From Amoebophrya sp. A120 (taxonomy: Eukaryota > Protista > Dinoflagellata), in NCBI GenBank assembly GCA_905178155.1, contig CAJINV010000002.1:4326108-4390107 (forward strand): a stretch of DNA of 64,000 nucleotides, in the 5' to 3' direction. The notes below the pieces were generated by a model. The model worked only from the letters and a program-made list of their open reading frames with translations, was not told the DNA's origin and made no database searches. This document shows, piece after piece, positions 10,158-64,000 of the stretch. A program made the translations under genes and the position numbers. Every line of letters begins with the position of its first letter. Position 1 is the first letter of the stretch.

Positions 10158-13100
10158 ATGGAGTCCGGGCGCATCTACGTCGACATCACGACGATTATTT
10201 TTCCGGTCTTCATGGGATGGAGCGCGGCGCTGTCGTTACTTTTTCCCGCCTTCTACAAAAAGTACTTCTGTTGCACTATGCGGAAACGGAAGGGCGATTC
10301 AGCATCTGATTCGCTGTACACAACGTCGTCATCCGGAATTATAAAAGCCTCATCGAAACAACAGAATAAAACTGGTACGAGAACAAAGAAGTCCGATAAT
10401 GAAAGATCCGAGTTGAACAAAGTAGCCGGGCCCTGCTCTACTACTTCGCCACATCAAGCAGACGCAGCAGTAGAGCCGGCGGCAGCGACGTCTGCAGAAC
10501 CCGTTGTAGAGCCGAATGCAGTTGAAGAGACTGGAGCTCCATTTCCACACGGAGCTGCTGTGAATACCACTGCTAGTTCATCTTCATCCTGCTGCTCCAC
10601 ACCTACTTCGTCTCGCGGAGGTTCTTCAGGCAGAAACACGATTTTTACTTCCTCACCGACTTCGGCATCGAAGCTGCTCTTGGAGGAGAAGACAGATATC
10701 ATGCAGCAGAACAAGGTAAACAACACGTCGGATAACGCTAGTAAAACCAAACAAGACGCTTCATTTTCATCAAAGCAAGGAGGATCGGCGAGTCGTTTAG
10801 AACACACAACAACTTCCTGGTTCAACATCATCTCTTCGGTCAACCTGAAGAAGTTCCTCACCGACTACTGCGATTCCATCAAGGTTCCCATCGACTTACC
10901 GCCGCTTATGGGGCTCTCAAACGTTACATTCTCAACTGTATAGGTACATGATTTGTCATGCAAAACCACTATCACTATTCACACGACCAAGCCTTCTTTG
11001 CATGACAACTTCTCGACGCGCTAAAGAGCACTATAATCCGTCCCAAATCTGTAATGCAGAAGGCGCAATCCTCCTCCTTTCACTTTTACCACTCTTGCAT
11101 TACAAATTCATGTAACAGTTGAGAGTGTAACGCTTGAGAACGCCATACCGCTCCCCATCACCGCGCAGCTGCCCGCGATCACTGTTTGGGTTTTGTTCTC
11201 CATCGCAGCAGAAGACGCGCTTTATATTGGGGTGTCGATTCCGATTGCCGTTGCGGGGGTGGTATCCTGTGCAAAAATATCGTACTCGTAGGAATCGCAG
11301 TCATGCAATACAAATCTAGTTATCACGGTCAATCCGCATTACAAATTGCATCTGTAATGCTGAGCCAGTTTGTAATGCAATTTCTACTAGTACGATACTT
11401 TTGCAATGCATAGGTGGTGAATTTAATGATTTACCCGCTGGTCTACGACCGGGACAGGTAAGTACTTATAGAGCTGCTTGTTCTCGAGGACCTTGATGAC
11501 CTTCTACTGCTTTATTGAGGAAACATAATTTAGCATGCTCTACTAGAAGTACTAGCCCCAAGATGAACTCAGTACCTGCGCCGTTTTCTCATCATTTCAT
11601 GCGCAAAAAACAAATGTTTATCTTCAGGTACTACCACCAGTTCCTCGCCCAGCTGGTAGTCGCGGTACTGATCATTTTTGCCTGCATTTTCTTTCTCGGG
11701 GTCGAAGATGCGGGTCTCTGCGCGACCTGGGCCAGCGTGCTCGGCGTCCCGTATTATACCTCCGCTTTGTTCGGGATGGCGACGGCGATTCGGGAAGGCA
11801 AGCCGGAAGCGTTGGGGTCGCTTACCATGAACTTCGCAGCGGTATGAAAGCCTCAGGTTGGAAATCCTCAAAGTATAATTTGTATGTAATGCAAAAAAAC
11901 GACTCCAGTTGAAGCGCAGTTTCAGTTTGTAGTCGGCGCATGACAAATTTCCCGGGCACTTAAAGCATGTCTGTCATGCAGATTAAGGCAAAGGGGTGTC
12001 CTTCTCTCGTGCTAAGCAGCACTCCAATTCTTCACCCCTAGCAGGACAATAGTCGGCCTCCATTGCATCCTCTGCAATGCAGTCTTTTTTGCGTCGCATT
12101 TCATGCATCACAAATTATTTCCACTTTGAGGATTTCCATTCTGAGGCTTTCATAAGCGGTGTGCGCGGCGGCCAGCTGGATGCTGCAGGGGTTGTTGGTG
12201 GCGAACGTGATCTATGAACTGCAAAAGTATCGTACTCGTATAAATGCATTCCAAATTTTCTCAGCACGAGAAAGAAAATTTGTAATGCTGATTTGCCTTG
12301 AGCTTGACGTAATGCAAGACCTGCATTTATACGAGTACGATATTTTTGCACAGCATATGATCGAGTTGTTCATCGGCTGTCTGTGCTACACGATAATCAA
12401 CGCTTGCGCACTAGTTTTGAACTTCTGTCTGCGGTCCGGGCCGGTGATTCAGACCATTTTGTCCAGTGGATCGGAAACGGAAAATATGGAAAATAATAAA
12501 ACTGCTGGAGGACTGCAAGAGCAAGAGAAGCGCAGCAGCGACGCTTCATCTACGTCAAATGAAGACAGGAACAAGGATCTCGACAAGGCCAAAGAGGTAG
12601 AGTTCACAAGCACGACAAGTTCCTCTCGGGATCATTACTTCAACAAAGTCGAATCTTCCTCTTCCTCCTCGCCGACGAAGGAGGGTACTGAAATTATGCT
12701 GTTGCGCAATGCAAGCACGACGAGCAATACAAGCACAGCCTTCTTCGAGGACCGGCCCAGTAACACGAGCACGCTGGCGTCGTCTGGTAGTGGCTATCAA
12801 ATGTAAAAATGTCTGGGTCTGGAAATTTGTGATGCTGGGTGGCGTCTCATGATGAGGCCACAAGTGCTGGCGCAGCATGACAAGTTTCTGAGCTCCTGGG
12901 TGTTGCCTATTCTGCATGACAAACTGCGCTTCTGCATCACAGAAAAACGGAGCTCTTGGGTAACGTGCATGACAGATTTAAAGAGTCATGCCAGACAAGC
13001 ATGACAAACATGCATTCTTCCAGACCCAGACACTTTTACATTTGATAGTGGCGGGTCAACGACGACTTTCCATGGCGCCGGTGGCGGTCCTCTCAGCAAT

Positions 13101-13289
13101 ACAAACTCCGCTTTGATGGTAACAACTCCCACAACCGCTGGCGCTGCAGGACAAGAGGGTATTAGTACCGCATCAACAGCATACGCGGCCCTCGCCAGCC
13201 AGGTATCCAAAAAACAGCACCCGCCCTCGCGCCCAAGCTTGGAGGATGTGTCGAAAGCGTTGGAACAGGTGGCAAGACCGTCGCTGTGA
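10158..13289 (+). CDS. SWEET/MtN3-like (PQ-loop) sugar transporter-like membrane protein, ~611 aa, with a long low-complexity insert after TM1 and a low-complexity C-tail
   Basis: Spliced product has about 7 hydrophobic helices with SWEET-like segments (LPITAQLPAITVWVLFSI; GVPYYTSALFGMATAIREGKPEALGSLTMNFAAVCAAASWMLQGLL). Contains 5 introners plus GT-AG intron 11458-11627; 1836 nt in frame. Confidence 0.65.
10907..11147. mobile_element. Introner family F
   Basis: TATGG..TCTCAAACGTTACATTCTCAACTGT TIR; DR CCGCT. Confidence 0.85.
11263..11412. mobile_element. Introner family B
   Basis: Family B TIR; DR GGTGG. Confidence 0.9.
11843..12154. mobile_element. Introner family D-like
   Basis: TATGAAAGCCTCAG..TGGAAATCCTCAAAGT TIR; DR AGCGG. 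Confidence 0.9.
12213..12357. mobile_element. Introner family B
   Basis: Family B TIR; DR TGATC. Confidence 0.9.
12795..13047. mobile_element. Introner family A
   Basis: Family A TIR; DR GTGGC. Confidence 0.9.
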
Positions 13290-15680
13290 ACAAGGGACAG
13301 CGTTGTAGCGCTACTTTCTTCTACTTTTCGAACATCGAGAATACAAAACTTGTTTTCTAGAAAGCTAGCACATTTCATTGAAAAACGTCATGTTTCTTCA
13401 AAAACTAACAGCATATTTTCCTACAGAACCTAGAGCTACTGAAAAACCCGCGATAAGTTACTACCCCACTACTTTTATCTCGGCATCTCTACCCACGCAA
13501 ACAGGAATTTTATGGGTTGAAAATTTACCCGCAACGTGCACTACCCCGCCTACGATACTGATGCTATGTAGCTGCTTTCCACAAGAATAAGAGGACCCTA
13601 TACAAGTAGAAGCACCGCCTGGCCCGGCACTATGGCGCACAAGTGCCGCGCCGCCGCATTAGCCTGGAAGGTCGACTCAAGTTTGAGTGCAGGGCTTCGT
13701 AGGTCGTGCAGGGTAGTCTACATATCCCTGTACCATTGCTAAGAAGCGTGCACGTGGTGCGCATGACACCTGCCTTCTATTTTTACTCTAATTGCAACAC
13801 CTCCAAATCCTCCCGAGGGCTGGAGGGGTCGTGTTTCGAATTTCTCTCTAAAAGATATTGACAGGTTTCCATCGAATTTTTCCACTAACAGATTTATTCC
13901 AAACTAAATTGCTTAAACCTGCCACCTGGGGTTAATCAATTCAATATCCCAGCATCTGCGATATTGATACCTGTATAGCATGAAGCAGATCATGTTGACT
14001 TTACAATCCATTGGCATTGTCTTTTTGGCACTACAAGTACGAAGCGTTGCATTTTGTTGCATTTTTGTCTATTTCCTGCTGGTTGTGGTTGCCTGCTCTC
14101 GACGTCCTGAAAATTTGCGCGCAGCTGCTGCGCTGACCGCGGCTAGTTAGGCCGCGCGGGCGCTGCTGCCGCAAAACAACAGGATAGTTGAAGGTGCAGC
14201 AGCCTCGCAATCGCAACAGAAAGAACATTATCTCTCATTCTTAGTACATCTTCAAGATGAGCGGTCAAGGAGGAGCCGACTAGCGACCGAAAAGTAGTCT
14301 TTTTGTGACCGCTGGCACGCTTTATTTCTTGAAATTCACGATGAAAGATAGGACTTTCCTTTCACATACAGATTTGGACCAGGGAATAAATAGTATCAAA
14401 AAATCAACGCCTAAACGTAATCAGGAGGAGAATAAAAGCCTCTAAGTACTCCACTACGTCGTATGGGTACGAAAGGCAATAGTTCTAGAATTCCCCTTTT
14501 TGCAGCAGCTGCTACACGCCGATCATACCTACCAACCTGAGTGTGAACCTTATTCAAAAAAAAAATACCTATCCTTTTCCGTTTCGTCCGTATATTTTCT
14601 TCGTTTCGAGCTTTTCCTGTCTACACGTCCACGCACGCGCACCCATACCGAAACCACCAAAAGAACATCTCGGGTAGATGTCAAAAATGCAATGAATCGA
14701 TTTCAATTTTGTAGAGTTTCTTTTTGAAAGATTTGAAGCTACTTGTGGTCAGATGGACCAACATAGAACTTATGCTTATCCAAAGCGCCTGCGCTGCCTG
14801 ATGAAGAGTGCAAGGGCGTTATCCTTATGCTAGACGTGTTGCAAAGGATGCCAGTCATTCTCGTTCTTGGCGCTCTTCCACAGTGCATCTGCATCGGTAG
14901 CACGACTAAAAACCTCGGTAGCACGACTTGAGTCCTCGGTCTTGCTCTGACTGCGGTTCACAAATGAGATGGAGTCTCATCTCATCGTGTGCGGACAAAA
15001 GTCAAAAGAGCGTAGGCGGTTCGTGCTGTAATTTGGTGAAAAACGACGTAGGAGCGGCGTGCAGTTTAATTGTCGCACTCGTCCTGTCCTCTGACAAACA
15101 AATGAGGAAAAAATACTTCTTTTGATGACTCGTCGGACCGTTATGGTTATGCTGGTCGTGCACATTATTCCCCGGTGGTACTCGGTCTAACCGTCCTCGC
15201 AGCAGCATTAGTATATTTTTCGGTTCTCATCGTGCGCCCAAGTGTTGTTCGTCGTTCGTGCGTGCTATCGTAGTTCGCTTCTGACAATAAAGGAACACAA
15301 GCACGCGTAGTAGCAGGAAGTCGTCGTTCCATACGTCCTATATTACTGTTTGTTTTTCATCTTCGTAGTTGTTCTCAATAACGCGTCTTGTCGTCCATAT
15401 AGCTAGTAATACAGGACCATGACCACTGTGTTAATACCCATGTGTATGCTACGAAGGCTATCATTATGTTGTGTTATAGCTTTACCCACCCAACTCCAAG
15501 ACTTGTAAGTAAATTAAGTAAGCAAAAATTTGTAGCCCTCCCACAGTAGCCTACTTCATCAAAAACAAGATGTGGCCCCCCTCCAAAAACTTCCTGATCC
15601 TGAACCTGATGATGTCCATGTTGACTTAATAAGTTAAAGTTTTCAAAATTAAAAACCATCCGCATCCCTCCACAACCATC

Positions 15681-18600
15681 ATGAGTACTTCTCCTACAAC
15701 TTCCCCAGCCGTAAAACCCTCCGACCGCCTGAACGCGAACAACCGCCTCCCCGACGCCCCGACGAAAAAGAAAACCCCAGCGGGTGCTCCTGCGTTTCAA
15801 CCGAAAGCAAAGACGAAAGTTGGTTTCGCGGCCCACAGCTCTGGCGTGGCCACGGTGGCGAAGAATGTAGTTCAACATCCGAAGATAGTACTACAACAAA
15901 ATACTGGTAGCACGGGGGCGGATAGCAAAAGCGGGGGAGCAACAGCAACATCAGCGTCGGCTGGTAAAAATATCAAAAACCCAAAATCCTCAACCACTTC
16001 AGTAGCAGCTGCAAGTTCCCTACCGAAAACCCTGCCACCAGCAGTAGCAGGGAACATCAAGACGACGACAAAAAATCAGGGCAAGGTCGCAAAGCAAACC
16101 GAAACTCCTCCTGCAGGAGCTGCCCCCTCGACAAACGACAAGCATTCTCCTGGCGAAGATCTCGATGCGAGTCATGTCTCCTGGCCCGCTCACGAGGACC
16201 ACGAAGATCTTGACTATCAAATGTAAAAATGTCAGGGTCTGGAAACCTGTGATGCTGTGTGGCGTATCATGAGGAGGCGGCAATTGCTGGCTCAGCATGA
16301 CAAGTTTTTGAGCTTCTAGGTGTTGCCTATTCTGCATGACAAACTACGTTTCTGCATGACAGAAAAGTGGGGCTCTTTAGTAATGTGCATGACAGATTTA
16401 AGAGTCATGCCAGACAAGCATGACAAATCTCGCAATCTTCCAGACCCAGACATTTTTACATTTGATATTGACCACCACGAGACCATAGACTGGCCCATCG
16501 CGGGAGATAGCACGCATGGAAACAACAGTAAGGCAACAGCTGGAGGTGGTGGTTTTTCGCCGAAAACTTCCAGTACTGGTGATCGCACACAGGACCAAGA
16601 ACATCTTCATGCTGGACAAACTATAAAACAGAAACAGCCACGTCAACACTCCCGCCACGACCTTTCTTCGCCGAGTCGCTCCACGCACCACGAGGTCGCG
16701 GGCAACGCGCCTTTGATAGAAGGCGGGGAGTCCTCCGAAGAGCAAGGTCAGGGAGTAGATGAAAAACACGCCATCGTCCCAGTAGTGTACGACGGGCACG
16801 ACGAGGACCATGGGAGCTACAACGCAGACGAGTTGTACAACGTGGAAGGAGAGGAAGAAGAATTCTTTCATGATGGGGTCGCGGCTGACGACGGGTTTTA
16901 TCATGGCCATGGCGAGGATCATGATTATGGATATGATCATGATGATGAAACAAGAGCAGACCATGACCATTATAATGATCAACACGATGATCAACACGAT
17001 CAGCACTACTGGGACACGCTGCGAAACCACATGCACATGTACCACCAGCACATGCAACAGCAGAACCAGGAAACAAGAATAGAAGCGGAGCAGGCGTCGA
17101 CGAACAACAAGAGAAACATCTTTAAAGACATTTTTAACGCGCTCCATTACTTCCACACGAGTCTCGCGCACGGGCATAAGGTGCACTACCGGGATCCGGA
17201 CCACCACGAAGAGATTCAGCAGGAAATTAGAGAGAAAGAAAAAGCTCGGAAGGAGAAATACAGAAAGGCGAGGTTCCCCACCGATTCCCACCACGTCGGG
17301 GTGGTGAAGAACCCCAGTTTATTGGCGAGGGCGGGAGCGGGTGCATCCGCGAAAAACAGCATCGCCGCACGATCTTCCCGGTCCAGTGCGGCGCTGGATA
17401 GGTTGAAAGATGTAGTCGCCCACGTTTCGTACCGCGTGAATTACAGGGGCTCATCAAGTGGAACTTCTACATCCTCGAGAAAATCCTCAAAGGCCGCCGC
17501 TTTGGACCAAGCGAGAGAGCAGGCCGATGCGACCTGGGAGAGCTTTGAGGAAATGCACTTTGGCGGCGGTGTAGGTGCTGCTTCTGCAGCAAGAAGGTCA
17601 TCTTTGGCCACCTCTAGTACACCTGCATCAACCGAGCTAGCGATTATTCCTTTCGGTGGAGCCCACGACGAGGACTCAACATCTTTCACGCCCCCGCGCC
17701 GGCCCGGCGGGTCGACGTGGGGGGCCCCGAAGCCGGAGGGAGAGGGCATCAACACGTCGGCCATTGCCGGCATCATGGCCCGCCGGACGCAGGAGGCGCG
17801 AGCCAAAGCGCGGAGCACGGACGCGGCCGCGCGAAGGACGGCCCGGGCGAGTGAGAGGGCCATCCGGACGGCGAAGACGCAATATGCCAGGGAACAAATG
17901 TTGGAAAGCAAGACTGCGGGATGGGCCGCGGCACTCAAAACCGGGGGTGAAACAGGCGAGGACTCCTCGGAAGTTGTAAGGACCGAATCTGAAGAAAAAG
18001 TGCAGCGCCACCAGCAGGAGCTTCAGGGGAGTAGAGCAACGGGACTCGAACCTGTAGACAACGACGCCGAGGAGGAGGCTGCTCGAAGCACACACGGCGC
18101 CAGAACTACAAGTACCGCGCGAGAACATCATAGTAGCCGCACAGCAGGAGGGTCGTTGTCGGCAACATCTGCCGCCGGGCGTGCGACCGCAGGAGCCACG
18201 TCTTCTTCAAGTAGAATTGAGGCTCTAACCAGAAAGTCGCTGAAGCAGGGGATCGTGGAGAATTTAGAATACCAAGACGAGCAACAAAGAATGGCTTCGA
18301 GAAGTACTGCTGGTGGGGCGCACGTCGCACATGCAGCAAGACAGTCTTCATCTTCCCGAGCAACAGAGACCGCAAGGACCACAAGCGCAGTTCGAGCCAC
18401 TGCAAGAAGAACCGGGTCAGGTGTTGAAGTAGGTGATCATGAAGACACGACAAGAAGATCAAGTTCTATGCCGGGCGGTGATCATATTAGCACTTCTGGT
18501 ACAACTTCTAGACGGTCCACCAGAAAGAAACAGCCGGGCGATCGATTACAGCTGCGGCAAGAAGAGGCACACGACGCGGAGAAAGAGGAAGGACGAAGTG

Positions 18601-21600
18601 AAGACCTATTTGCATCAAACGCTAACAACTTCGGGGGCCTACAGCTTCTTACTCGTGAAAGTGAGAAGAGAAAAACATCCGAGCAGGACGAGCCGCGGAG
18701 CGTCAAGTTATTGCAGACTCAACAGACGTTTGGCCTTGGCCAACTAGAGCTACATGATCACGCGGAGGGGGAAGCTGCAGGGGTAGATGCGCTCATAATC
18801 GAGGAGGGAGGCACAGACGATCATGATGTCGATCCGACGACTCGTGCTTTTTTAGAGCAGCATGCCGCGCACTCGCACGGCTGGAGTAGAAGTGCTGCGG
18901 CCCAGCACTACACTAGCGAGGGAGAAGCGATGCCCCCGATGATGGGCGGTGGACCACCCGGACCTGCAAATAAAGGCTGGGGTGGAACTAGTACTACCCA
19001 TAAAAGCAGTATGGCAGCACAAAAAGGGTATTCCTATTCACTGAAACACGGTACTCGCGAGGGAGAAGCGATGCCCCCCGGACCCGCAAAGGGTGGAGGT
19101 TGGGGAACCACACATAAAGGCATGGCAGCACAAAAAGGGTATGCACCGAAGCACGGCACTAGCGAGGGAGAAGCGATACCCCCGATGGGCGGACCCGGTT
19201 GGGGACCTACTCCCTATAATAAAGGCATGGCAGGACAACCAGGAGGGTATAATGCTGCACCCATGACGGCGGATCCGTTTGGTAAGGTCGCCGCGAAGAA
19301 GGGAGGTGGTGGCCCGGGAAAAGGTGGTGGGAAAAAAGGGAAAGGGAAACAAGATCCCTCTGATATCCTGTGTGAAAACGACGTCCCCACGATGCCAGAG
19401 TCAAGATAGGGATTTTGCTACACAAACCAGCAGCTTTTGGCTGTCGCGCATGACAAGTTCGGGCTCGCAGTGTAATTGCGTTTAGCTATTACAGCTCGCT
19501 GCATCACAACTTAATCGCCCGATGCTGATTCTAGCATTACAAATTTCCAGATAGCATCAGAAAATGGAGGCTCTCATCGGGCTGTGCATGAAAGATGGTT
19601 TAGGCTTACAGATTTGCATGACAACTTTGCGAAACAGCGCAATCTTGCAGATTTTGCATGCTAAACAGCGCTCTCTTCTATGTTTTTGGCGTATGTGATT
19701 TATCCATAGATTAACATGAAAGCCGTGCTGCAGGGTCCAGTATCCTTGTTGCTGGTGTCCTGGTTGTGCTTTCTATATGTGTCGCGAGTAAGGATTGTTG
19801 GCGTTGTTGGCGAAAGTGTGAGGCAAAAAAGTTGGTATAGTTGGCGAGTTGGTATAGTGGCCGGGAGATGATGGTGATGGCACTTCGGTGCCCACCTGAC
19901 CTACCTTCCCTGCGTGACAGCCATCTGCGGCCGTTTGCAAAGGGGGAGGCAAAGTGTGCCGCACTTCTGTTTAGCATGACAATTTTGCGAAGGTGGGGAG
20001 GACGTTTTTACGCAGGATATCTGAGTGGTATGAACCAGACCACCACGACCACTATGGGAACAAAGTGAACATGTCCGAGACGTCCTCCGAGGTGGCCAGG
20101 AAGGAGCTGGACATGCACTTCTACCCCATCGTCTCGGTACTTTACCCGGTGGTTCAGATTTTCATGTTTTACGCCGTCGCAAACAAGACCGAGGATTCTT
20201 TACGGGACTACAATCTCAAGTACGGAATTCGGGCGTTCAAAAACCGGACCTGCTTCCTCACCGAGAAGCCCTTCGAATACAGTGGGTGTCCCTGGTTCGT
20301 CGACATCAGGAGTGAGGCGATCCGCTACGTCTCCTACGCATTTGCCCACACGGATACCGGGCACCTTTTGAACAACATCATTTTCGAACTCCTTTTTGTA
20401 TGCAGGAGTGCAAAAGCATCGTACTAGTATAAATCGCAATACAAATTGGCTCAGCATTACAAATTGAATTTGTAATGCGGATTTACCTTAACAAGTAGAT
20501 TTGTAATGCATGACTGCGATTACTACGAGTACGATACTTTTGCACAGGATATTTTGGCCCGAGTCTGGAAATGGTGCACGGCACCGCGCGCATGCTGCCC
20601 TTGGTGCTTTTGGCCATTCTCGGCGGCAGTCTCACCACGGCCGCGGATATCAACTGTAAAAATGTCTGGGTCTGGAAGAATTCATGTTTGTCATGCTTGT
20701 CTGGCATGATTCTTAAATCTGTCATGCACGTTACCCAAGAGGTGCGTTTTTCTGTGATGCAGAAGCGCAGTTTGTCATGCAGAATAGGCAACACCTAGGA
20801 GCTCAGAAATTTGTCATGCTGAGCCAGCATCTGTAGCCTCATCATGAGACGCCACCCAGCATCACAAGTTTCCAGACCCAGACATTTTTACATTTGATAG
20901 CGGAAGACCCAACGCAACTCGTGGTCGGGAGTTCCGGCTATGCCTACGGACTGGTGGCGATGCAGATCGCGAATCTCGCTATGAACTGGCACGAGTTATC
21001 AAATGCAAAAATGTCCGGGTCTGGAAGGTTGCGAGATTTGTCATGCTTTTCTGGCATGACCAAAAAGTTTGTGATGCGTGTCCAAGAAAAGACTTCTTCG
21101 CCACCTGTCATGCAAAAACGCAGTTTGTCATGCGAAAAACGCAACACGTACACAAAAAAGCGCAGATACTTATTTCTCATGCTTGGCTGTGTATTACAGA
21201 ACATTCATTATTCCCAACGCAGCATTACAAGTTTCCAGACCTTGACACTTTTGCAATCCATATGAGTATGACCACCGCTATTTCCACTTCAACCACGAAC
21301 AGACGCTGAAGATGCGGCAGTCCTACGTGTTTTTGGCCACTATTTTAACTTTCGTCCTCATGATGTCCTTTTCTACTGTGCAGTCGATGGACGGCGGCGG
21401 GGTGTCCCACTCCGCGCACATGGGCGGCGCCATCTGCGGGCTCTTGTTCGCAGCGCTGTTCTGTCGAAACGTGGTCAAGTATCCGAGTGCACAGCCTCCC
21501 CTCCCCCTCATTTGAAGGATATAAACAGCAACGCAAGCGCTGGCATACTCATACATGCAGCTTTTGCATGACAAGTTCGCGACCGACTCTGGTTCTGTTC

Positions 21601-22317
21601 CGGCTTCCGGAACCTGTCATGCAAGAAGTGCCAAAGATAAAAGGGTTGACTTGAATATTTTACATTACAAATGAGGGGGACGAAGGGGAGTTGTGCATTG
21701 TCATATCAATCGGGGCAGCGAGGGAAAAGTACAGGTCGCCTGCGGAATCACAGCGGCGGTCTACGTAATGGTGCTACGCCCTGCAAATTATTGGTCTGGG
21801 TCTGGAACGAAATCAAAAATGCAAGGAGTTCTTGTAGTGGTTGTAGTAATGCTTGGAGCAACACGTACTGATGCTTGTCCCTTGCCCGCCTGAACGCAGG
21901 ACGAACAGGATTTGTCATGCGCATGCGCAATACGCACTGCATAAAAGAAGTAACCGATGATCAAAAATTTGTGTTGTTTTGCCGACGAAAGTCAAAGTCT
22001 TCTGGCCAGCAGCAGAGCCATGTATGAAACTTGTGATAATTTTCCAGTGACCCAGACCAAAAACAATTTGCAATCCATAGGTTCTGATCATCCACATATC
22101 GAACTCGGGAGAAGGCACCGGTACGGAAGCTCCGGTGAGTTTACTTTCCGGGCAAATTCACTCCTGCCGGGCAAACGCGGGCGGGTTGGCCGCGGGACAC
22201 TGCTGTCTCTCGGAGAGCAAACAGGCAGAGCGCTGTGCTGCCGCAGCGGAAACGACGACAACGGGAGAGCCAAGTTCCTCTGACACTACATCGACGACAG
22301 CCCTGCCCTTGCCGTGA
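15681..22317 (+). CDS. Rhomboid-family intramembrane serine protease with ~1140-aa low-complexity N-terminal extension (~1496 aa)
   Basis: After removing 7 introners the sequence reads AHTDTGHLLNN...GPSLEMVHG...VVGSSG (GxSG catalytic Ser)...VSHSAHMGG (catalytic His); 4491 nt in frame. Confidence 0.85.
16215..16467. mobile_element. Introner family A
   Basis: Family A TIR; DR TTGAC; close copy of 12795-13047. Confidence 0.9.
18910..19235 (+). repeat. Three imperfect coding tandem repeats (TSEGEAMPP...KGMAAQKGY) in the rhomboid N-terminal extension
   Basis: CGAGGGAGAAGCGAT near 18917, 19057 and 19163; ATGGCAG(C/G)ACAA recurs three times. Confidence 0.8.
19364..20019. mobile_element. Introner family J with ~340-bp internal insertion
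   Basis: TATCCTGTGTGAAAACG..CCCCAC / GTGGGG..CGTTTTTACGCAGGATA; DR TCTGA. Confidence 0.85.
20399..20551. mobile_element. Introner family B
   Basis: Family B TIR, opposite orientation to 11263; DR TTTTG. Confidence 0.9.
20648..20899. mobile_element. Introner family A
   Basis: Reverse complement of 12795-13047; DR GCGGA. Confidence 0.9.
20997..21262. mobile_element. Introner family A
   Basis: Family A TIR; DR CGAGT/TGAGT. Confidence 0.85.
21480..21705. mobile_element. Introner family G
   Basis: GTGCACAGCCTCCCC / GGGGAGTTGTGCA TIR; DR TCAAG/TCAAT. Confidence 0.85.
21775..22079. mobile_element. Introner family A (diverged)
   Basis: TGCAAATT..TTGGTCTGGGTC / GACCCAGACCAA..TTTGCA; DR GGTGC/GGTTC. 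Confidence 0.8.
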
Positions 22318-23975: not shown

Positions 23976-25162
23976 ATGACTATGTCTCGCCGCGGACAAC
24001 AGCAACAGCACGCGCAGGTCGTGCACCAGATGAAGAACAAGACCACCACGTGGTCCACGACCGCCGCGCTCCACTGCGTTGTGGTCTTCACCAGCCTGAC
24101 GGGATTTTTACCCGCTTCTGTTGACGCGGTTTTCAACCCTCTGTCGAGTGACTACCTGGATCGGATCTTGAACAAGTGCCGGGAGACAGGCGGCGTCCGG
24201 TTTCCAAACACAGTGAACGCCACCGATTTTACCCAAATTTGCAGGAAGAAGAACATGCGGTTTGCGATCGGCGTATCCTGTGCAAAAGTATCGTAGTCGT
24301 ACTAATTGCAAATATGCATGACAAATCTCCTGCCTAAAGTAAAACAGCATTTTACAAATTCCACTTTTGTTCTTGCCAAAATTTGTGATGCAATTTATAC
24401 TAGTACGATACTTTTGCAATGCATACGGCGAGAACGAAGGCGATCTGGAAACGACCAGCAACGGCCCGCTGGCGTTTTCGGGTACCGTGACCACGGCCTC
24501 ATCCCTGACCAAGGCCTTCCGCAAATTGGACTTTGGCGACGATCACGACGGGGCGACCTCGGCCAGGTGCTGGATCCGTTGCGGCACCGGGAGCGCGACG
24601 TATCAGGCCTTCGCGGCTGAATTGCCGTTTGCGGGCGGAACGGAGGGGGCTGCGCAAGACGGAGACGTGGTCACGGTCACGCGGAAGGGCTATGGGATAA
24701 ACGGCGAGGGTATCAAATATAAAAGTGTCTGGGTCTGGAAGAATGCAACTTGTGATGCTGCATTTGGATTCCAGAAAAATCTGTATTGCATGAGTACCAA
24801 AAGGAATGTAATTTTTGCTACGTGGAGAGGGCATTTGTCATGCGGAATAGGCATCAGGAGGCTCTCAAAAAATCTGTGATGCTAGGGCATGCATCACAGA
24901 CATCAGGGCTCATGCAAAACGTACATGACAGTTGATAGAGGGTGGCCAGGTGGAGATTACCTCGTGGGAGTGCGGTGACATGTTTAACCTTGAAGGACAA
25001 ACTTCTGCGAGCGCCAGCAGCACCAGCAGCAGCAGCAGCTCGTCGTCGTTTCTGCAACCCGTTGCGCGCTCCGCGGTGGGTGTCGATGGCAAGGCGGGCG
25101 TGGCTCCCTTCCTGTCCGCCAAGAAGCAAGCCCTCAAGAGTGGTGGCAAGTGGATAGTTTGA
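23976..25162 (+). CDS. Putative secreted protein (~265 aa), Cys-containing, function unknown
   Basis: Signal-peptide-like ALHCVVVFTSLTGFLPASVDA; ORFs 23976, 24367 and 24932 join in frame across 2 introners (798 nt). Confidence 0.7.
24274..24425. mobile_element. Introner family B
   Basis: Family B TIR; DR CGGCG. Confidence 0.9.
24711..24937. mobile_element. Introner family A with truncated right TIR
   Basis: Full left TIR; right end reduced to CAGTTGATA; DR GAGGG. Confidence 0.85.
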
Positions 25163-36414: not shown

Positions 36415-39400
36415 ATGTCCTCCTCCACCTCCGCCGACCAGAAGCCCCCTGCCCCTCCTCCGCCCAAACCGCCAACGCCCCCGACCGCGGCGTCCGCGGG
36501 CGGTAACGACGGTGGCACGGACGAGGAGACCATTTTCCAGCGCAACATCGACAACCACGCCAACGTCACGACCGAGGAGGAAGATGTTAGCGGCGGCGGA
36601 GGTCCACCAGGCCATCATACAGACACCTCTGATTTGGAGGACCAACAAGCCTTCTACGACAGCATCCGCCCGCAAACCACCGCCCACAGCAAGCGATCGG
36701 GGGGTACTGGGAGAAGTAGGAGCCGCGGCAGCATGTTCCCGCCCGCGTCCGCCAGCCGGCCGCAGTCCATCGGCCCGGGCGTGCAGGTCGTCCCGGACAG
36801 CATGCTCTCCACTGCGAACGCCAACATCAACGCTCTGCGGGGCGCCGCACGGCAGTGGACGCTGTTGGCGCTGCACTGGAGGAGGCAGTCTCGGCCGGAG
36901 GTGGCGTTAAGGTACTTGTCAATGGGATTGGCGGAGGCGGAGGCGTTCTTTGAAAAGATGAATTACAAGCTGAAAAGGGAAGAAGACAAGGAAAATAAAA
37001 CCGACGGAAAAGGAGAACAAGCAGATCATGAGCAGGAACTTGATGTTGATCAGGAAAGAACAGAAAGAACAGTAGATGGAGACATCACCATCGCTGGCGA
37101 GAAGAAAATCGAGGAATACACTGGGGAAGAACAGGATCAGGAAGTTCTTGGTGTAGGGACAAGAAGAAACGCGGCTAGTAGTACCTTATCAACACGACGC
37201 GGGGGTGGACCACCGCTTGCCCCGCCGCGGTCATTTTACCCAGAACAAGGAACCACAGACGAAATAGGAACAGCTGCTTCGTTCAACTCCTACTCGCTCT
37301 CTCCGCCCAGATCCTCCCAACTACATAACTCCTCCGGACCCCCGCAGAGTAGAAGTAGAGGCAGGAGCCAAGGCTCGTCTCGTCAGGGTGGTGGCCAAGA
37401 ACAAGCCCAGGGTGGCACTGGCACCAGTCGTGGGGAACAAAAGTGGGTGATTAACCAGAAGCAGATTTCCAAACACCCCTTCCACAACCCGAGACGACCG
37501 GCGTTCTTCAACCCGGAGCCGTTTCGCGCGTCGAAAACCGTCCCGCATCCGTTGGACATCTACTACGAGAACCAAGCGACTATGCAAGAAAGAAACTGTG
37601 TAAGTGTAAATCTGTAATGCAGAACACGCAACGGAGTTACGCCTGTCATGCCAGACAGCTATGAAGTTCTCTTTTCATGTGTGTTCTCCCTCACAAGCCA
37701 CGCATGACAGGTTTTCTCTGTCACGTAGAGCAAACTTGTGATGCTGTCAGCCAAAGATACTTACACTGACACAGTTTTTTTCTTGGATAGCGACGCCAGC
37801 GGGATTACTGCAACATCAGCAGGGATCAAGTTCCAGGACGGGGAGTCGCAGAAGCAGGCTATCCACAGAAAAAAGCCTATCCATTACCATTTCGCATTGC
37901 ATTTTTTTTGCATGACAAAAAACACAGGGAATGCATCCATATGTTGCACGTTTTGCATGACAGAAACAGATTTGATCTTAATGTGGATGGGATTTTTTCC
38001 GGGGATGCAGGCCGGTGAATTTCTACTCCGACGACGCAGCGATTGAACGAGCGAAGGAAGAGAACGCCGCAGCGGGTTCCAGGCCGGGATCGAAAGCCGG
38101 GGGATCGAGATCTACGTCGCGAAGTGGCAGTAGACAGAACGTGAATCCGCCACAGGCACAGCACACGACTTCCCTCTCCGGCTCGTCTTTGATGGAGGTA
38201 GATCACAGGTCCATGTCGATTGAGAAAGACGAGAATTATCCTTCGATCTCCTTGCAGGAACCGTCCAGCACCATTCCCCCCTCCGGCGGCCTACCATCGG
38301 TGGACGAAAATTTTTCCCAGACCATCCGACCGCATTATTTCCAACAAGAGGACAGCTTTCTCCCCCCACCCGGCGCCTCCGCACCCTCCGGACAGTTCTT
38401 CTATCAACAACAACATACGAATACGATCCCGCCCGGGTCGAGTGGAATAAATGGTGCGTTTTACAATTCATCTTCTCCGGACAAACTGCGCTCCAAAACC
38501 GCACCCGCAGACACATCTCCGGTGAAGAAGCCGATGAGTGGTGGGGTCTTCAAACCGAGAAGACCAACCTTTATGCACTGCAAAGAGATGGAGATCGTAC
38601 TAGTATAAATCGCATGACAAATAATGTCCTCAGCATGAGAAATGGAACTTGTATTGTGGGTCTGACTTGACAAAAAAAATTGTGATGCATCATAGCGATT
38701 ACTACGATTACGAAGGTACTTTTGCAATGCATAACCTCCCCCGGGCAGCATTTCGCCGCGGCGAAGCAGATTGAGGGCACGTTGCGAATGAACGCCGCGG
38801 CGATTTTATCGCAAGAAAAAACTGTTTCACTGTAAACTTGTGATGCATAAAATGGAACACAGAAGCATTTGTCTTGCTACACATGCAAGAAAGTAGATTT
38901 TTAGCTGTGTTTTCCCTTAGGAAGCTTGCATGGCAAATTTTCTCTGTCATGCGGAACAAACTTGTGATGCAAAAGTTGCAAAATCCTTACAGTGAAACAC
39001 TTTTTTCCTGTGATAGATTTTGTCGGATTTGAGCGCGTATTCAGGGCAAAACTGTATTCGTACTCGTGCTAAGAAAGAAAGTCTGTTGCAACCCACTGCG
39101 CATGAGAAATACCTAAGCCTACGATGACAAATTCAACTTCTCGGCTTGCCGATAGAATTTGTGATGCAATTTCTGCTCCGCACGATACTTGTGCGATGCA
39201 TAGTCCGTTTGAGGAGTCGAAAGAAGAACTGATGGAAGCGTTGGACTGCGCGGACAACATTTTAGACTATCCAGTGCAAAAATGTCCGGGTCTGCAAGAT
39301 TCCGAGGCTTGTCGTGCTTGTCTGGCATGACCAAAAAGTTTGTGATGCGTGTCCAAGAAGAGACCCTTTTGCCTATCATGCAAAAACGCAGTTTGTCATG

Positions 39401-45678: not shown

Positions 45679-48600
45679 ATGAAGTTTCTTAACGATGGCG
45701 ATGTGTCCTTTTTGGACCTCGAGAAGCTGATGTTTGAGGGCGGGGTGAAAAAGCCAGGCCATCTTATAACCCGCTCAGGTGTTACAATCTCAAACGTTAC
45801 AATAGAATATGGAAATCTGTGACGCAAGAGTGCATGATCTAGCCAGCCCTCATAGGATTGCGCATGACAAGTTCCGGAGCCCCGAACCCCACTACAATCT
45901 GGCAAAATTTGTATTGCAGAAAATGGAACGCGCTGCGATTCTGTCATGCTCGGCATGCAACACAAATTCCAGATTCTATGGTAACCGATTTGAGATTGCA
46001 ACACCTGAGCGGGTTATACATCTACAGAAGCGCCGCAAAGTCGAGATGAAATATCCTGTGCAAAAGTATCGTACTCGTATAAATGCATTACAAATTTCCT
46101 CAGCATGAGAAAGAAAATTTGTAATGCGAATTTACGATAAGAAAAAGATTTGTAATGCAAGACTTGCATTTATTATACGAGTGCGATACTTTTGCACAGG
46201 ATATGAAAATAAGTGGCACAACTCCGAAAAACTACAGCAACACGACGTCATCTTCAAAAGCTGCTACTGGGGCTGCAAGCAGCTCTTGTAACAAATTTCA
46301 GAACAACAATCTCGGGCTAAGCGAATTGCCCATCGGAAGTAGCAGCTGCAACAAGAGCAATGCGGAAAATAAGAGAAAATCGTCCTGTGCTCTTGATGGA
46401 CCTCCACAGGATGTGAATAAAACTGACGGCGCGCTCGAAGGCCAAGATGACGAGACTGCTCAAGGCAACCACCGGAAGAGCACCTCCGACCACCAGAAAG
46501 ACAACACTGTAACTTCCACGGCGGCGGGGACCCCCGCCTCCGATTTCTTCCTCCACCGCGAGCAAAATCGGAAGGTGTACGATCTGACCGACCCCAGCGC
46601 TTTGGTGCAGAAGGGGGAAAAGGTCGGGTGGCTTGCCGTGCGTGCGGACAAACGGGAGGAGTTGGAGACGGTGAGTAGAAAATTGTCCGCGACGAGCTCG
46701 TTTGATAACAAGGACAATGTTGAACAGCAACAAAGTCTTCACGTTTTTAACAAGAGCCAGTCTTTCGATCAGGAAGGAAACGTGAACCCCCACGGAGTAG
46801 TAACTACTGCTCCTCCTGCGCGAGCGTCTCTTGGTTCAACAGGATCCGAACAGCAGAACAATAATCGCCATGACGCGGCTAGTAGTACACCAGCAGCAGG
46901 AGCTTCTAGCACATCGGATAAAAATCACGATCTCGGCTGCCAAAACGTGGACGATTTGTCTCCGACCAGCCGATATGAATTCATTGCAAAAATGTCCATG
47001 TCGTACTAGTCCATTAATCGCAAGCATGCAAGACAAATCTCGTTCCTAAGGTAAATCAGCACGACAAGTTTTTTCATTCGTAAAAATGGTGAGCAAATTT
47101 GTATTGCAAAAATCACTACTAGCACGATGATACTTTTGCAATTCATAGCTGTGCGGTGTACGAACAGCGGAAAAAGACCGAGGAGAACATGGAGCTCACG
47201 GCCGTCGTCTCCAACGTGCACCGCCACGCGACGCGGGACGTATCCTGGGTAAAAACATCCCCACCCCATAGTTGTCATGCTGATTTGCGATTACAGGAAA
47301 ATCTGTAATGCGCATCTCTAAGGCGGGCATTTGTTCCAATCGCGTTCTGGAATTTGTAATGCTGCAAACAGGATAAGCAGATGGATTTGTGATGCGGTTG
47401 TCCCTGCTAACATGCACGACTACACTGCGGACTGCAACTTTTCATGCGTGGCTCCTAAAACTTCTGGATCTGTATTGCTAAGTTCCCAACTTGACTATGG
47501 GAAGATGGGGACGTTTTTACATATGATAGGACGAGGTCCGGAATTATTTCACGGAGAAATGCGGCAAGGTTGCCGACATCCGGTTCGTGCCCGGACGGGG
47601 CATGTTTTCCATCGCGTGTATCCAGTTTGAAGACCGCCAGGGAATTGAAAAAGCGATCCACGGCTTGGCGGATCCGATGATTAAGGGCTATCGTGTGACC
47701 ATCAAATCCTCGGTCCAAATCCGGCAGGACTTGCAGAAGGGGAAAACGCGGGCAGAGGTGCTGGAGAAGATCAATTTCCAAAATCCGGTGAAATCCATGT
47801 TGGAAGGCCCGAACGACCCGAATATCGCCGCGCGGAACCGGGGCTTCGGGATTTACAACGATACCATTTCCTTCGAGGAAAAACGAAAATGGGAGCAACA
47901 GCGGTCCTGGCAAGAGGCCTACTGTTACAAACAAGAGTATATGAAGTGCAAATACGTCTGGGTCTAGAAAAGTGGAACTTGTAATGCGTGTCTTGCATTC
48001 CTGGACAATCTGTGTTGCATGAGCAGCAAAAGAGGAGCTTCCTTTGTCATGCAAAAACGCGATTTGTAATGCGTATTAGGCATCAACAGGCGTCTTAAAA
48101 ACTTGTCATGCTTGACTGCCATTGCAAGCGCTTCAATCATGCGCAACTCAGCATCACAAGTTTCCAGACCCAGACATATTTGCATTTGATAGAGTACAGC
48201 TCGAATCCGGGCCTGAAGCCGATCGGTGTCAATCCCCCGCCGCCGCCGGTTTATTCAGTGCAAATATGTCTGGGTCTGGAAGGATGCAATTTGTGATGCT
48301 GGATTTGGATTCTAGAATAAATCTGTATTGCATGAACAGCGAAAGAGGTGGTCCAAGCTTTGCCATGGCGAGAGGACATTTCTGATGCGCTATAGGCATC
48401 AGGAAGCTCTCCTAAAATCTGTGATGCTAGGGCATCTATCAGAGACAACAGGACTCATGTAAAATGTGCATGACAATAAACCTTGCATTCTTCCAGACCC
48501 AGACATCGTTGCATTTGATACGGCTCTTGGAACGTCGACGATGAAAAACCACAGTGACAAAAAATCCGAGACGGATGGTATCGTAAGGAAAAATGCCCCC

Positions 48601-51600: not shown

Positions 51601-52093
51601 GATCTACTTCCTGCCGGAAAAGGACCATTAGGAGGACAACAACAAACCGAGATCAACATGACGTCTAAGCGCAAGAACAACTTCCATTTGAACTGTAGCG
51701 GTTTATGCATTGCAAAAGTATCGTACTCGTATAAATGCATATACAAATTATTTCCGCAGCATGAGAAATGAAATTTGTAATGCGGAATTACCTTGAGAAC
51801 AGGATTTGTAATGCATGACTGCAGTACGAGTACGATACTTTTGCACAGGATACGGCTTCCGACCCGCGGATGATTGGGACCTCTTGCGGCATATCCTGTG
51901 CAAAAGTATCGCACTCGTAGTAATTATTGCAATTATGCATGATAAATCTTTTTCTCAAGGTAAATCAGCATGAGAAATTTCATTTGTAATGCTGAGCAAA
52001 TTTGTCATGCAATTTATTATATATACTAGTACGATACTTTTGCACTCCATACGGCAGCGGAAAGGTGGAGTCTTGCGCTACGAAGATCGTTGA
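45679..52093 (+). CDS. RNA-binding protein with two RRM domains and Gly/Pro/Asn-rich tail
   Basis: RRM1 TAVVSNVHRHATRDEVRNYFTEKCGKVADIRFV...IACIQFED; RRM2 RIRITNLPANFD...WFQRFGEMESV...MNGFEYFGEMLKV. Frame verified to 50831. Extension to TGA 52091-52093 is inferred from 3 further frame-preserving introners and a probable GT intron at 50809 whose acceptor is uncertain. Confidence 0.7.
45765..46018. mobile_element. Introner family F-related, long near-perfect TIR
   Basis: TATAACCCGCTCAGGTGTTACAATCTCAAA / TTTGAGATTGCAACACCTGAGCGGGTTATA; DR CATCT. Confidence 0.9.
46052..46203. mobile_element. Introner family B
   Basis: Family B TIR; DR TGAAA. Confidence 0.9.
46974..47147. mobile_element. Introner family B (diverged)
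   Basis: Degenerate B TIR; DR GCCGA/GCTGT; frame restored into RRM1. Confidence 0.7.
47241..47528. mobile_element. Introner family J
   Basis: GTAAAAACATCCCCA / TGGGGACGTTTTTAC TIR; DR GGACG. Confidence 0.9.
47940..48191. mobile_element. Introner family A
   Basis: Family A TIR; DR GAGTA. Confidence 0.9.
48252..48520. mobile_element. Introner family A
   Basis: Family A TIR; DR CGGTT/CGGCT. Confidence 0.85.
48579..48883. mobile_element. Introner family H
   Basis: Family H TIR; DR GATGG. Confidence 0.9.
48951..49230. mobile_element. Introner family J
   Basis: AAAAACCTACCCACACCAGAGT / ACTCTGGTGTGGGTACGTTTTT; DR CAACC. Confidence 0.9.
49291..49505. mobile_element. Introner family C
   Basis: Family C TIR; DR AAATG. 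Confidence 0.9.
50111..50375. mobile_element. Introner family A
   Basis: Family A TIR; DR AACCT. Confidence 0.9.
51244..51395. mobile_element. Introner family B
   Basis: Family B TIR; DR GCATC. Confidence 0.9.
51704..51852. mobile_element. Introner family B
   Basis: Family B TIR; DR CGGTT/CGGCT. Confidence 0.85.
51892..52051. mobile_element. Introner family B
   Basis: Family B TIR; DR CGGCA. Confidence 0.9.
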
Positions 52094-53143: not shown

Positions 53144-56100
53144 ATGGGAGCCGCAACTGCGCTTCTCGACAAGGTCGCTGACGTTTTCTTCAAATTTTTT
53201 TTCCAAACCATTCCGGCGTTTTTCCGCAAGATTTCCTCTTACGAAGGAACGACCCGGCCCTTCACCGTGGAGTTTCTCTTATGAAAGTGCACAACTCCCC
53301 CTCCCCTCGTTTGTCATGCAAAATTCCCAATCCAACATATATTGCCTCTTGGCACTGTTTACATGACAAGTTCTTGTAGCCCAAATAGCACTACACTCGA
53401 GTGCAAATTTGTCATGCAAAACCGGCATAATTCTTTTTCTTGCTGATGCTTGTTGTACTATTGCCGTTCATCTTCATGCTATACAAATGCGATGGAGGGG
53501 GAGTTCTTGCGCACTCTCATATCTCTCTGAAACCAACCACAAGCTGAACGATATCAAGTTCAAAAACGATTTACCAATCAAGGCCCCGGAGTACGACAAG
53601 TCCGAGCTGGGGATCTGGAAAAACAAGCGCGGCCAGAAAATCTTCACGAGAACGATCCACCCGAAGGGGGTACTAAGAGGTTCTAGTACAACAAACACTT
53701 CTACTGCAAGAAGTGACGGCACCACCCTGACTTCTGCATCAGCACCGAAAGTTGTAGACCCCGAGCCGAACTGCTCTCAACATTTGATCTTTTTTCACCA
53801 CGTATGGAATGCAAAAGTATTGTGCTGTCGTATAAATGCATCACAAATTTCCTCAGCATGAGAAATAAAATTTGTAATGCTGATTCAGCTTAAGAACAAG
53901 ACTTGTAATGCATGATTGCAATACGAGTATCAGATGCAGCTTTTGCACAGGGTACCACGGCATCCTCGGACATTGCTCGCAGGCCTTGAAAAACCAGCAG
54001 GGAAATTGCTTGGGGTTATTGTCCCTTGCGCACTATCCTCTGCAAAAGTATCGTACTCGTAGTAATCGCAGTCATGCATTACAAATCTCGATCCCAAGGC
54101 AAAACAGCATGACAAACTCCATTTCTCATGCTGAGTGAATTTGTCATGCGATTTCTACTAGTACGATACTTTTGCAATGCATACGTACGACTTTGCGGAG
54201 AGCGGGTATTCCTGCTTTCTCTACGATGCGGTGGCACATTATGGTGGTGTCAGCATTGAAATCGACAAAGTTCTTGAAATAGCTTGCAATGCATAAAATC
54301 GATACCAGTCGGAAGCCCAATTTTCAAACGGCGCATGACAAATTTCGGCGCCGTTGAAATCAAGTCTGTCATGCTGTTTAGGGACAGAGCGCGTCTTTTG
54401 TCATGCTACTAGAGCAGCTCTATTGCAGACCCCAAACAGGCTCACAATCGGTCTCGCTTGCAATCCCTGCAAGACAGTCACTTCGTGCCTTGCATTTTAT
54501 GCATCACAGATTATTTCAACGTTGTCGATTTCAATCCTGACACACCCACACACATGGGTATTCTGCCGGCTATTTCGCGGACAACACGGACGATCGGGAA
54601 AAACACTACCTGCCGAAGTTCGAAGTATCGCAAGAAAAAAGTGTTACAGTACACTACACATTGTGTTGCAGGAGCCGCAAGACAGACGACCTTTGTCATG
54701 CAGGAAATGCTTGCGAGCCTCGCTTGTTCCTACGTAATATTTTCCTTTATGATCTTTGCATTACAAGCTTTGGCTTTCTCTGCCACGCAGAGAAAATTTG
54801 TGATGCAGCAACTCCAAGAACAAATGTGTAACTGTAACACTTTTTTCTCTACTGCATACGAACACTGTATCGACGACTACGAGGAGTATGTGAAATACTG
54901 TATGAAAAAATACGCAAAGAAAACAACGACGAAAACGAAATTTTTCCTGTACGGAGAGTCCTGGGGCGGCGCGTGCGCACTTCAGCTGGGGATAAGGTAT
55001 GGAAGTGCAAATAAATTTGGTACATACGTAGTTGTTTTAGGTTTATATATTGCTGGGATGGTACAGCTGAGCTTCGCTGTCATCCCGGTCATTTACTCCT
55101 TCTACAGACAGTAATTCTTTCTTTTTGTGATGCACCAGAAATCCAATCTGAAAGTGAAATAGAAATAAATCAAATACCTCTATCAGACTTCAAGAAAAGT
55201 CCCACCCGCTGCATGCCCAGTTCGGCGGCGCCATTCTGAATGCGCCGATGATTCACTTCTCCATGCCGATCCTCCCCATCAAACTGTTTCTCCGCCACGT
55301 CGCCGCGCCCCTGTTCCCGTATGCAGTGCAAAAGTATCTTCGTACTCGTACAAATGCATCACAAATTTCCTCAGCATGAGAAATGGAATTTGTCATGCTG
55401 ATTTGCCTTGGCAACAAGATTTGTAATGCAAGACTTGCATTTATACGAAACGCGTACGATACTTTTGCACAGGATATCCCGACGTGGCGACCAATCTTTA
55501 TGCCCCACAACACCTCTATCAAATGTAAAATGTCTGGGTCTGGAAGATTGCCAGGCTTGTCATGCACATTTTGCATGACTCCTGATGTCTGAGTCTGTGA
55601 TGCATGCCCTAGCATCACAGATTTTGTGAGGGCTTCCCAATGCCTATACCGCATGACAAATGCTCTTTCCGTGTAGCAAAGCTTGGACTTTCTTTGCTGC
55701 TCATGCAATACAGACTTTTTTTGGAATCCACAATCAGCATGACAAGTTGAATTCTTCCAGACCCAGACATTTTTACATATCCACGTAGTTCTCTTCTCTT
55801 TTCTTTCTTCAAAATGTTAAAGTCGTTCTCTTCCCTGTGCAGACAAAACACCAGACATTTTTACATTTGATAACCTCGGTCGACAAGCTGTCCAAAGACC
55901 CCGCGATCCAGCTGCAGGTGACGGAAAAAAACGCCTATGGTGGGGAAAACAATCCGCTGCGGTTAGGGACCGCGTTGCAAATGGTGAGGCAAGTGGAAGT
56001 ATCCTGTGCAGAAGTATCGCACTCGTAGTAATCTTCGCAATTATGCATTACAAATCTATCTTGTTAAGGTAAATCCGCATTACAAATTTAATTTGTAGTG

Positions 56101-63820: not shown

Positions 63821-64000
63821 TACTGGGGCGGACGGACCTCACTCGCAAAACGCTGGGGCGGACGGACCTCACTCGCAAAACACTGGGGCGGATGGACCTC
63901 ACTCGCAAAACACTGGGGCGGATGGACCACGCGCGCAAAACACTGGGGCGGATGGACCACGCGCGCAAAACACTGGGGCGGATGGACCACGCGCGCAAAG
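63821..64000. repeat. 30-bp tandem minisatellite (6 copies, runs off the window)
   Basis: Unit CACTGGGGCGGATGGACC(TCACT/ACGCG)CGCAAAA, head to tail with no spacers. Confidence 0.95.

Follow-up and report, generated by a model that had tools for sequence, protein, structure and literature searches.

How can an intron be removed from RNA whichever way round it lies in its gene? The question is raised by a stretch of 64,000 nucleotides (nt) of Amoebophrya sp. A120 (contig CAJINV010000002.1, positions 4,326,108 to 4,390,107; called the window here, in its full length), in which + strand genes are interrupted by families of introner elements that face both ways. A first-pass annotation had claimed that such elements work as introns in either orientation, that their excision signal must consequently be symmetric, and that excision is guided by RNA structure or takes place in the DNA. 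Two-way removal at the RNA level is confirmed by our analysis, and the elements themselves are already published A120 introner elements. The DNA signal is symmetric; its reading is one-way.

The catalogue contains 67 curated elements of 110-956 nt each. In end profiles their ends are inverted repeats made of TAT, about seven loose bases and a run of A. A scan of the window for TAT..ATA ends with exact flanking direct repeats gave 43 matches with repeats of 5 nt and none with repeats of 6-8 nt, while the same scan on three dinucleotide shuffles gave 0-1 matches. With terminal inverted repeats (TIRs), a target-site duplication (TSD) of fixed length and no coding frame, the elements fit the definition of miniature inverted-repeat transposable elements (MITEs), i.e. 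non-autonomous TIR transposons. A look-up for an autonomous partner in 148 loci yielded three long TIR-bounded stretches with a longest frame of 151 amino acids (aa).

The inverted copies named in the first-pass annotation are indeed inverted. The reverse complement of 20648-20899 is identical to 12795-13047 at 239/253 positions (94.5%) and to 16215-16467 at 223/253 (88%), as compared with 61% in the forward direction. That of 20399-20551 is identical to 11263-11411 at 132/153 (86%). Family J was compared after stripping the terminal 30 nt, so that the inverted ends cannot decide orientation; reversed alignments scored higher throughout. Copies 47241 and 48951 scored 140 and 167 against 19364 when reversed (37 and 45 forward), and 47241 scored 126 against 59459 (27 forward); the comparison of 48951 with 59459 is weak (66 reversed, 46 forward). 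Orientation calls made from interiors only were conflict-free in the window, with forward/inverted counts of 8/10 in family A, 13/12 in the B group and 6/1 in family C; in family J, 19364 and (by pair scores) 59459 are forward and the other two inverted. The copies on which the comparison of orientations turns are listed below; X1 and X4 are sequence runs which we took as RNA on the grounds that a GT-AG intron is spliced in them and spacers are empty, and no record labels them RNA.

12795..13047, + strand: family A, reference orientation; duplication GTGGC; intron 12794-13051 at the register inferred below; removed in X1 record 1 and X4 record 5
16215..16467, + strand: family A, reference orientation, in the rhomboid-domain gene; duplication TTGAC; X1 record 2
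20648..20899, - strand: family A, inverted, in the same + strand gene as 16215; duplication GCGGA; inferred intron 20647-20903
20997..21262, - strand: family A, inverted, in the rhomboid gene; removed in an RNA contig
11263..11412, + strand: family B, reference orientation; duplication GGTGG; joint 11257>11413 in X1 and X4
12213..12357, - strand: family B, inverted; removed in the same contig as 11263
20399..20551, - strand: family B, inverted; duplication TTTTG; removed in an RNA contig
19364..20019, + strand: family J with internal insertion, 656 nt; removed whole in RNA
47241..47528, - strand: family J, inverted; absent from annotated protein P0002; outside RNA contig coverage
48951..49230, - strand: family J, inverted; absent from annotated protein P0002
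59459..59770, + strand: family J, reference orientation; frame opens on removal (on paper)

Nineteen of the 20 copies covered by RNA contigs are removed as the element plus one 5-nt duplication. Eight of these removals are seen directly, as joints or adjacent pieces, and 11 follow from record coordinate arithmetic, in which the coordinates equal element plus 5 exactly (3356, 3406, 6747 and 853 nt; start 26181). The first X1 contig, which is repeated in X4, a second sample, skips 10907, 11263 (B forward), a GT-AG intron, 11843, 12213 (B inverted) and 12795 (A forward). The second skips 16215 (A forward), 19364, 20399 (B inverted), 20648 and 20997 (both A inverted), 21480, 21775 and 24274; here the pieces 15376-16209 and 16468-19358 of X1 record 2 are adjacent, with the 258 nt of 16215 skipped, and 20648 is removed by an exact coordinate sum. 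The third skips 26865, 27244 (A forward) and 27942 (A inverted). Further removals were found for 50111, 51704 (B inverted) and 51892 (B forward), at joints with short sides of 20 and 30 nt, which is under our 31-nt bar; the last two share a contig whose middle exon is 30 nt. Thus, A and B copies of both orientations are removed within shared contigs. The raw-read runs X9-X11 contain no reads on these genes.

Annotated proteins add to this count. Three window exons each match one annotated Amoebophrya sp. A120 protein (P0001-P0003) with 100% identity, and all 36 elements concerned are absent from these proteins with the same element-plus-5 length. Three of the 36 overlap RNA-tested copies, and the annotation is transcript-based and may share data with run X1. 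The region 46300-57000 is thinly covered by RNA contigs, and the removals of inverted J copies come from annotation only. In total, the evidence is for removal of 52 of the 67 elements and for retention of one, with none for the other 14. Removed interiors span 110-956 nt, nested insertions included.

The + strand of the host genes, also claimed in the first pass, is backed by frames, by Pfam matches (rhomboid, hydrolase, RRM, ion-channel and MORN) and by an ordinary intron: the transcript strand is fixed because the GT-AG intron 11458-11627 is spliced in the same RNA contig as the elements.

15682..22314, + strand: host gene with C-terminal rhomboid domain; 7 elements, both orientations
11458..11627, + strand: ordinary GT-AG intron; its splicing is seen in the contig that also lacks 11263, 12213 and 12795

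Dropping each element with one duplication opens long + strand frames of 1563 aa (nine elements), 1512 aa (seven) and 896 aa (10), and 47 of the 67 elements would shift the reading frame if kept. The claim that the frame is restored in each case is sound on paper for every element; in RNA one copy, 24711-24937, appears to be retained.

24711..24937, - strand: family A, inverted, 3′ repeat cut to about 6 pairs; apparent retention in RNA (X1 and X4)

Two records, X1 record 3 (24876-25566, depth 409) and X4 record 7 (24893-25629), start inside this copy and continue into the next exon, and the upstream contig tails (24750 and 24749) fit entry into it. Its end duplex, at -8.2 kcal/mol, is the weakest of the 67. 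This is a single case, and contigs would drop rare spliced forms. An exon of its gene, compared with 50% representative proteins, matched only unrelated repeat proteins. Separately, a transcript of a different locus, in which a family A end (like 16434-16468) is still joined to its flank, is present in X1, X4 and X9, with 92 and 70 reads in X9; it represents a retained copy at that other place.

For the orientation count per family that the first pass had proposed, we used copies outside the window. A single family-A end pattern picked out 148 loci; of the 267 distinct elements scanned there, 244 were kept, the others having weak strand votes (22) or lying at a locus edge (one). The strand of the 244 was computed by a method that was correct for 67/67 elements on the window that trained it. 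After 35 copies without a family were set aside, the 209 family-assigned copies, on other contigs, split 110:99 relative to the gene (p=0.49), with family A at 68:68 and family B at 14:14. Insertion orientation relative to the gene is about 50:50, and no bias was seen.

Where exactly is the cut? The 5-nt repeat hides it unless the two duplication copies differ. All 11 informative copies with mismatched duplications agree on a single register (p about 0.0015 if registers were uniformly distributed), and seven other mismatched copies gave no call. The intron is N-TAT...ATA-NNNN: read along the transcript, it starts one base ahead of TAT and ends four bases beyond ATA. The left letter is kept in RNA at position 4 (21775 and 51704) and in proteins at position 2 (56554), position 3 (54034, 46974 and 39038) and position 4 (48252); the right letter is kept in proteins at position 5 (54626, 56215, 38572 and 40029). 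Among the copies used are the following:

21775..22079, no strand given: element whose duplications differ at position 4; X1 record 2 restarts at 22084, left letter kept
51704..51852, - strand: family B, inverted, duplications differ at position 4; joint 51702>51857, left letter kept
51892-52051: family B, reference orientation; joint 51886>52052; same contig as 51704
48252..48520, - strand: family A, inverted; left copy supplies position 4 (Val, not Ala, in P0002)
56215..56492, - strand: family A, inverted; right copy supplies position 5 (Asp, not Glu, in P0001)
54626..54858, + strand: family C; right copy supplies position 5 (His, not Asp, in P0001)
38572..38733, - strand: family B, inverted; P0003, position 5 from the right copy
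40029-40984: family B ends, nested insert; P0003, position 5 from the right copy

In inverted A and in inverted B alike, there are copies that bound the cut on its left and others that bound it on its right, and the mirror register is incompatible with three forward B copies; therefore the register follows the transcript, not the element. Sense and antisense copies thus share one junction position, the comparison called for by the first-pass annotation. Base use is flat at all five duplication positions. Donor dinucleotides at the mapped register are AT 19, GT 18, CT 16 and TT 14 (n=67), AG stands at 24 of the 244 outside acceptors (about 18 expected from exon composition), and the first base of the next exon is a purine in 170/311 copies, as in the exon background. 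A canonical GT-AG register lying inside the duplication was considered and rejected: six of the 67 elements are readable as GT-AG in any register, with 2.8 expected.

The ends themselves are constrained in a polar way. In the set of 311 oriented copies, TAT is altered 1, 0 and 6 times at its positions 1, 2 and 3 at the 5′ end, and 9, 5 and 1 times at the 3′ end (interaction p=0.0006); an automatic scan and strict strand calls gave 0, 0, 6 versus 8, 5, 0 (p=0.0002 and 0.03). TAT..ACA is present and TGT..ATA absent; there are five cases of TAC..ATA and one of TAT..GTA. Wobble pairing would lead one to expect the reverse. At positions 2 and 3, A.C mismatches do occur but the corresponding G.U wobble is not seen, hence the end constraint is a matter of sequence reading and not of pairing: U(+2), A(+3) and A(-7) are kept while their partners drift. 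At both ends, the fourth base of the repeat is C or G, yet the two are complementary only about as often as chance would give (36/67 and 140/244). The predicted end duplexes are strong in both orientations (median about 22-23 end pairs), with a median energy of about -30 kcal/mol over the 67 elements. The proposed symmetric signal therefore stands in part: TAT..ATA and the stem are common to both orientations, but the cut offsets (1 and 4 nt) and the substitutions are polar.

The bidirectional internal motif, the third part of that signal, is GCAT[GTC]ACA. It is symmetric in orientation (553 sense, 604 antisense) and gives no sign of a transcript-polar role. As a candidate branch point it was rejected for lack of transcript polarity, and it is more likely a subterminal transposase site.

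We consider it reasonably probable that the introners are removed at this fixed, transcript-oriented register by a U2-type spliceosome that no longer checks terminal GT and AG. Because the ends are inverted repeats, either orientation would offer the same donor-like N-U-A-U at its 5′ end and the same A-U-A near its 3′ end, the first A of which is the putative branch nucleotide. The N-U-A-U resembles the start of host GT-AG introns, G-U-A and mostly G-U-A-U (of eight checked, all begin GTA and five GTAT). The acceptor would be set by distance, counted 7 nt downstream of the putative branch A, and the long stem would join the two ends in place of U1. Because of the 5-nt duplication the cut would be seamless wherever an element inserts, and insertion almost anywhere in coding DNA may be tolerated. 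The branch A, the role of the stem and the spliceosome as the machine are putative components of this scheme. More tentatively, and with a little less than even confidence, we suggest a code that dispenses with U1, N-U-A-U...A-U-A-N4, in which one inverted repeat serves as donor and as branch A, a ruler sets the acceptor, and no terminal dinucleotide is read.

Several observations weigh against the spliceosomal reading. A branch A lying 7 nt from the acceptor and inside a stem is unusual. Any base is accepted at +1 and at -2/-1, and +5 is C more often than G. Copy 53803 has G(-7) and is still removed in P0001. Stem mismatches show no G.U excess (G.U 160 versus A.C 170), so RNA-level selection on the stem is not supported. 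Of the 11 register calls, nine were read from annotated proteins, whose transcripts may be the X1 data; of the two from RNA, one depends on the boundary of a piece and the other on a joint with 30 nt on one side. Finally, copy 24711 is retained despite N-U-A-U, A(-7), TAT, ATA and a perfect duplication. Since its letters are intact, N-U-A-U and A(-7) are not sufficient, and a longer 3′ arm is needed, as stem or as sequence.

The rival that survives best, although we think it unlikely, is a separate machine like that of Euglena, a nuclease with a ligase or a second splicing complex, which would recognize the base of the hairpin, cut at spacers of 1 and 4 nt and release a circle. According to the published accounts as far as they go (PMC12501133, PMC11282704), Euglena nonconventional introns have a CDG/CHG motif, spacers of 3 and 5-6, a purine-starting exon and excised circles. 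The A120 elements resemble them in an inverted repeat at fixed spacers, a longer 3′ side and no GT-AG, and their fixed spacers around a stem parallel the N3-CDG..CHG-N5-6 described in PMC12501133; they differ in having TAT/ATA, no CDG/CHG and no purine bias. Strong end pairing in both orientations, the indifference of +1 and -1, the removal of interiors of 110-956 nt, nested insertions included, and the weakest duplex in the only retained copy would all suit such a machine, as would the lack of a detected U1 in A120 in the text of PMC7789003. On the other side, the kept letters match those of host GT-AG donors (GTA), the stem has no G.U excess, four copies with weak duplexes (39038, 53803, 46974 and 38572; -12 to -18 kcal/mol) are removed in annotation, and the next exon starts with a purine no more often than the exon background.

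Purely structural, strand-symmetric excision, with the end sequence serving only pairing and the transposase, is improbable. It would accord with the orientation balance, with the symmetric internal motif and with the coincidence of stem loss and retention in one copy (24711), but it does not account for a polar, pairing-independent constraint on TAT/ATA or for the near-chance complementarity at position 4. Excision from DNA in the manner of ciliate internal eliminated sequences, with transcripts made from cleaned templates, was suggested by the first pass and by the TA-like ends and transposon anatomy, and we regard it as very improbable: the one DNA-like run (X5), whose contigs may lose rare variants, carries the elements, has even depth (about 42-48 over genes and spacers), contigs that enter or cross elements (21668-23677) and zero depth at four listed spliced joints, and a transcription-tied register would be hard to obtain from DNA cutting.

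Two published points speak for the spliceosomal reading, the small nuclear RNAs of A120 and the introns of Fritillaria, both described below. In the text of Farhat et al. 2021 (PMC7789003), A120 introners have inverted repeats that start with TAT, followed by seven looser bases and an A run, with direct repeats of 3-5 nt at their borders and RNA-supported, non-canonical ends; over 60% of A120 introns are non-canonical and the intron border is marked unknown. The same text reports U2, U4, U5 and U6 small nuclear RNAs and U2AF for A120, with U1 not detected. The window elements share the TAT ends, A run, 5-nt repeat and non-canonical removal from RNA; in strain A25 the ends start with TTA instead. 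Beyond that text go the 50:50 insertion, the 1+4 register, the polar ends and the retained damaged copy, part of which figures 3 and S19-S25 may show. No statement on orientation, register or branch point was found in the text of the Amoebophrya literature consulted (PMC7789003 with its supplement, PMC12130899, PMC9860276 and PMC11282704). The cut register and the one-way reading of symmetric ends are new here.

Other introners are described, in the portions of the sources available, as follows. Those of Polarella glacialis and Aureococcus anophagefferens are TIR/TSD transposons that form introns in either orientation (Roy et al., 10.1101/2020.10.14.339549; PMC10228655; both also describe Huff et al. 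2016), as in our window; their G[TCA] and AG are taken from duplications under constraint (GHN6, AGGH, NNAGG), and their insertion is biased in orientation (10.1101/2020.10.14.339549), whereas in A120 the duplication is unconstrained, orientation is unbiased and terminal dinucleotides are free. Fritillaria borealis has MITE-derived, non-canonical TIR/TSD introns handled by an adapted U2 spliceosome with preferred AG-AC and AG-AT (Henriet et al. 2019, as described in review PMC11282704); the A120 elements are likewise MITE-like TIR/TSD introns, probably served by such a spliceosome, without a preferred dinucleotide at either cut. Sister stwintrons of Hypoxylon are repeated introns with long terminal inverted repeats, canonical U2 signals and no target duplication (PMC8469720); A120 introners are like them in repeated inverted ends and unlike them in signals and target duplication. 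At the mapped register, the A120 introners lack the G[TC]..AG ends of U2-type introns.

The ordinary introns of the window deserve a remark. In the eight GT-AG introns checked, the introner internal motif occurs at 4.3 per kb, as compared with 0.3 in exons, and the 3′ ends are A/C-rich, not pyrimidine tracts. One of the window's GT-AG introns, 50809-51216, begins G-TATGCA and ends GCATG-AAAG; its letters suggest an old introner, again of 1+4 register, whose ends have become canonical. One X1 contig (15376-24750) spans the rhomboid gene, a 1.6 kb spacer and the next gene, through read-through, overlapping untranslated regions or polycistronic transcription; a single molecule is only putative.

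Some elements are composite or doubtful. The J copy 19364-20019 has an internal insertion of roughly 370 nt, and its outer ends are those used; the A copy 55517-55872 has an apparent second, inner 3′ end near 55778, and again the outer ends are used. In 40029-40984, B ends surround about 800 nt of GC-rich short-repeat DNA and the whole 956 nt is removed in P0003; the interior, found also in locus L061 (87.6% over 540 nt), is likely a second mobile element nested in the introner. A decayed family A-like sequence without a clear duplication (61020-61303) was excluded from the catalogue. A non-coding TAT..ATA hairpin at 23629-23737, with a near-perfect 5-nt repeat and without A run or internal motif, is kept in X1 record 2 and may not be a true element. 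GC-rich blocks occupy spacers at 30800-32000, 34960-35900, 58500-59150 and 63790-64000, the last with a 30-nt tandem repeat.

These results bear on a question left in 2021: by what means does Amoebophrya excise the roughly 60% of its introns that lack GT-AG, with no detectable U1? The fixed register and three constrained nucleotides point to a possible branch location and to bases to mutate, and the register gives an annotation rule for introner-bearing genes. They also show how a transposon can be free of the dependence on splice dinucleotides from the host by which other introners are limited. If the U1-less code is true, any TAT-ended element with a 5-nt duplication would make a perfect intron wherever in coding sequence and whichever way round it inserted, which would explain tens of thousands of intron gains.

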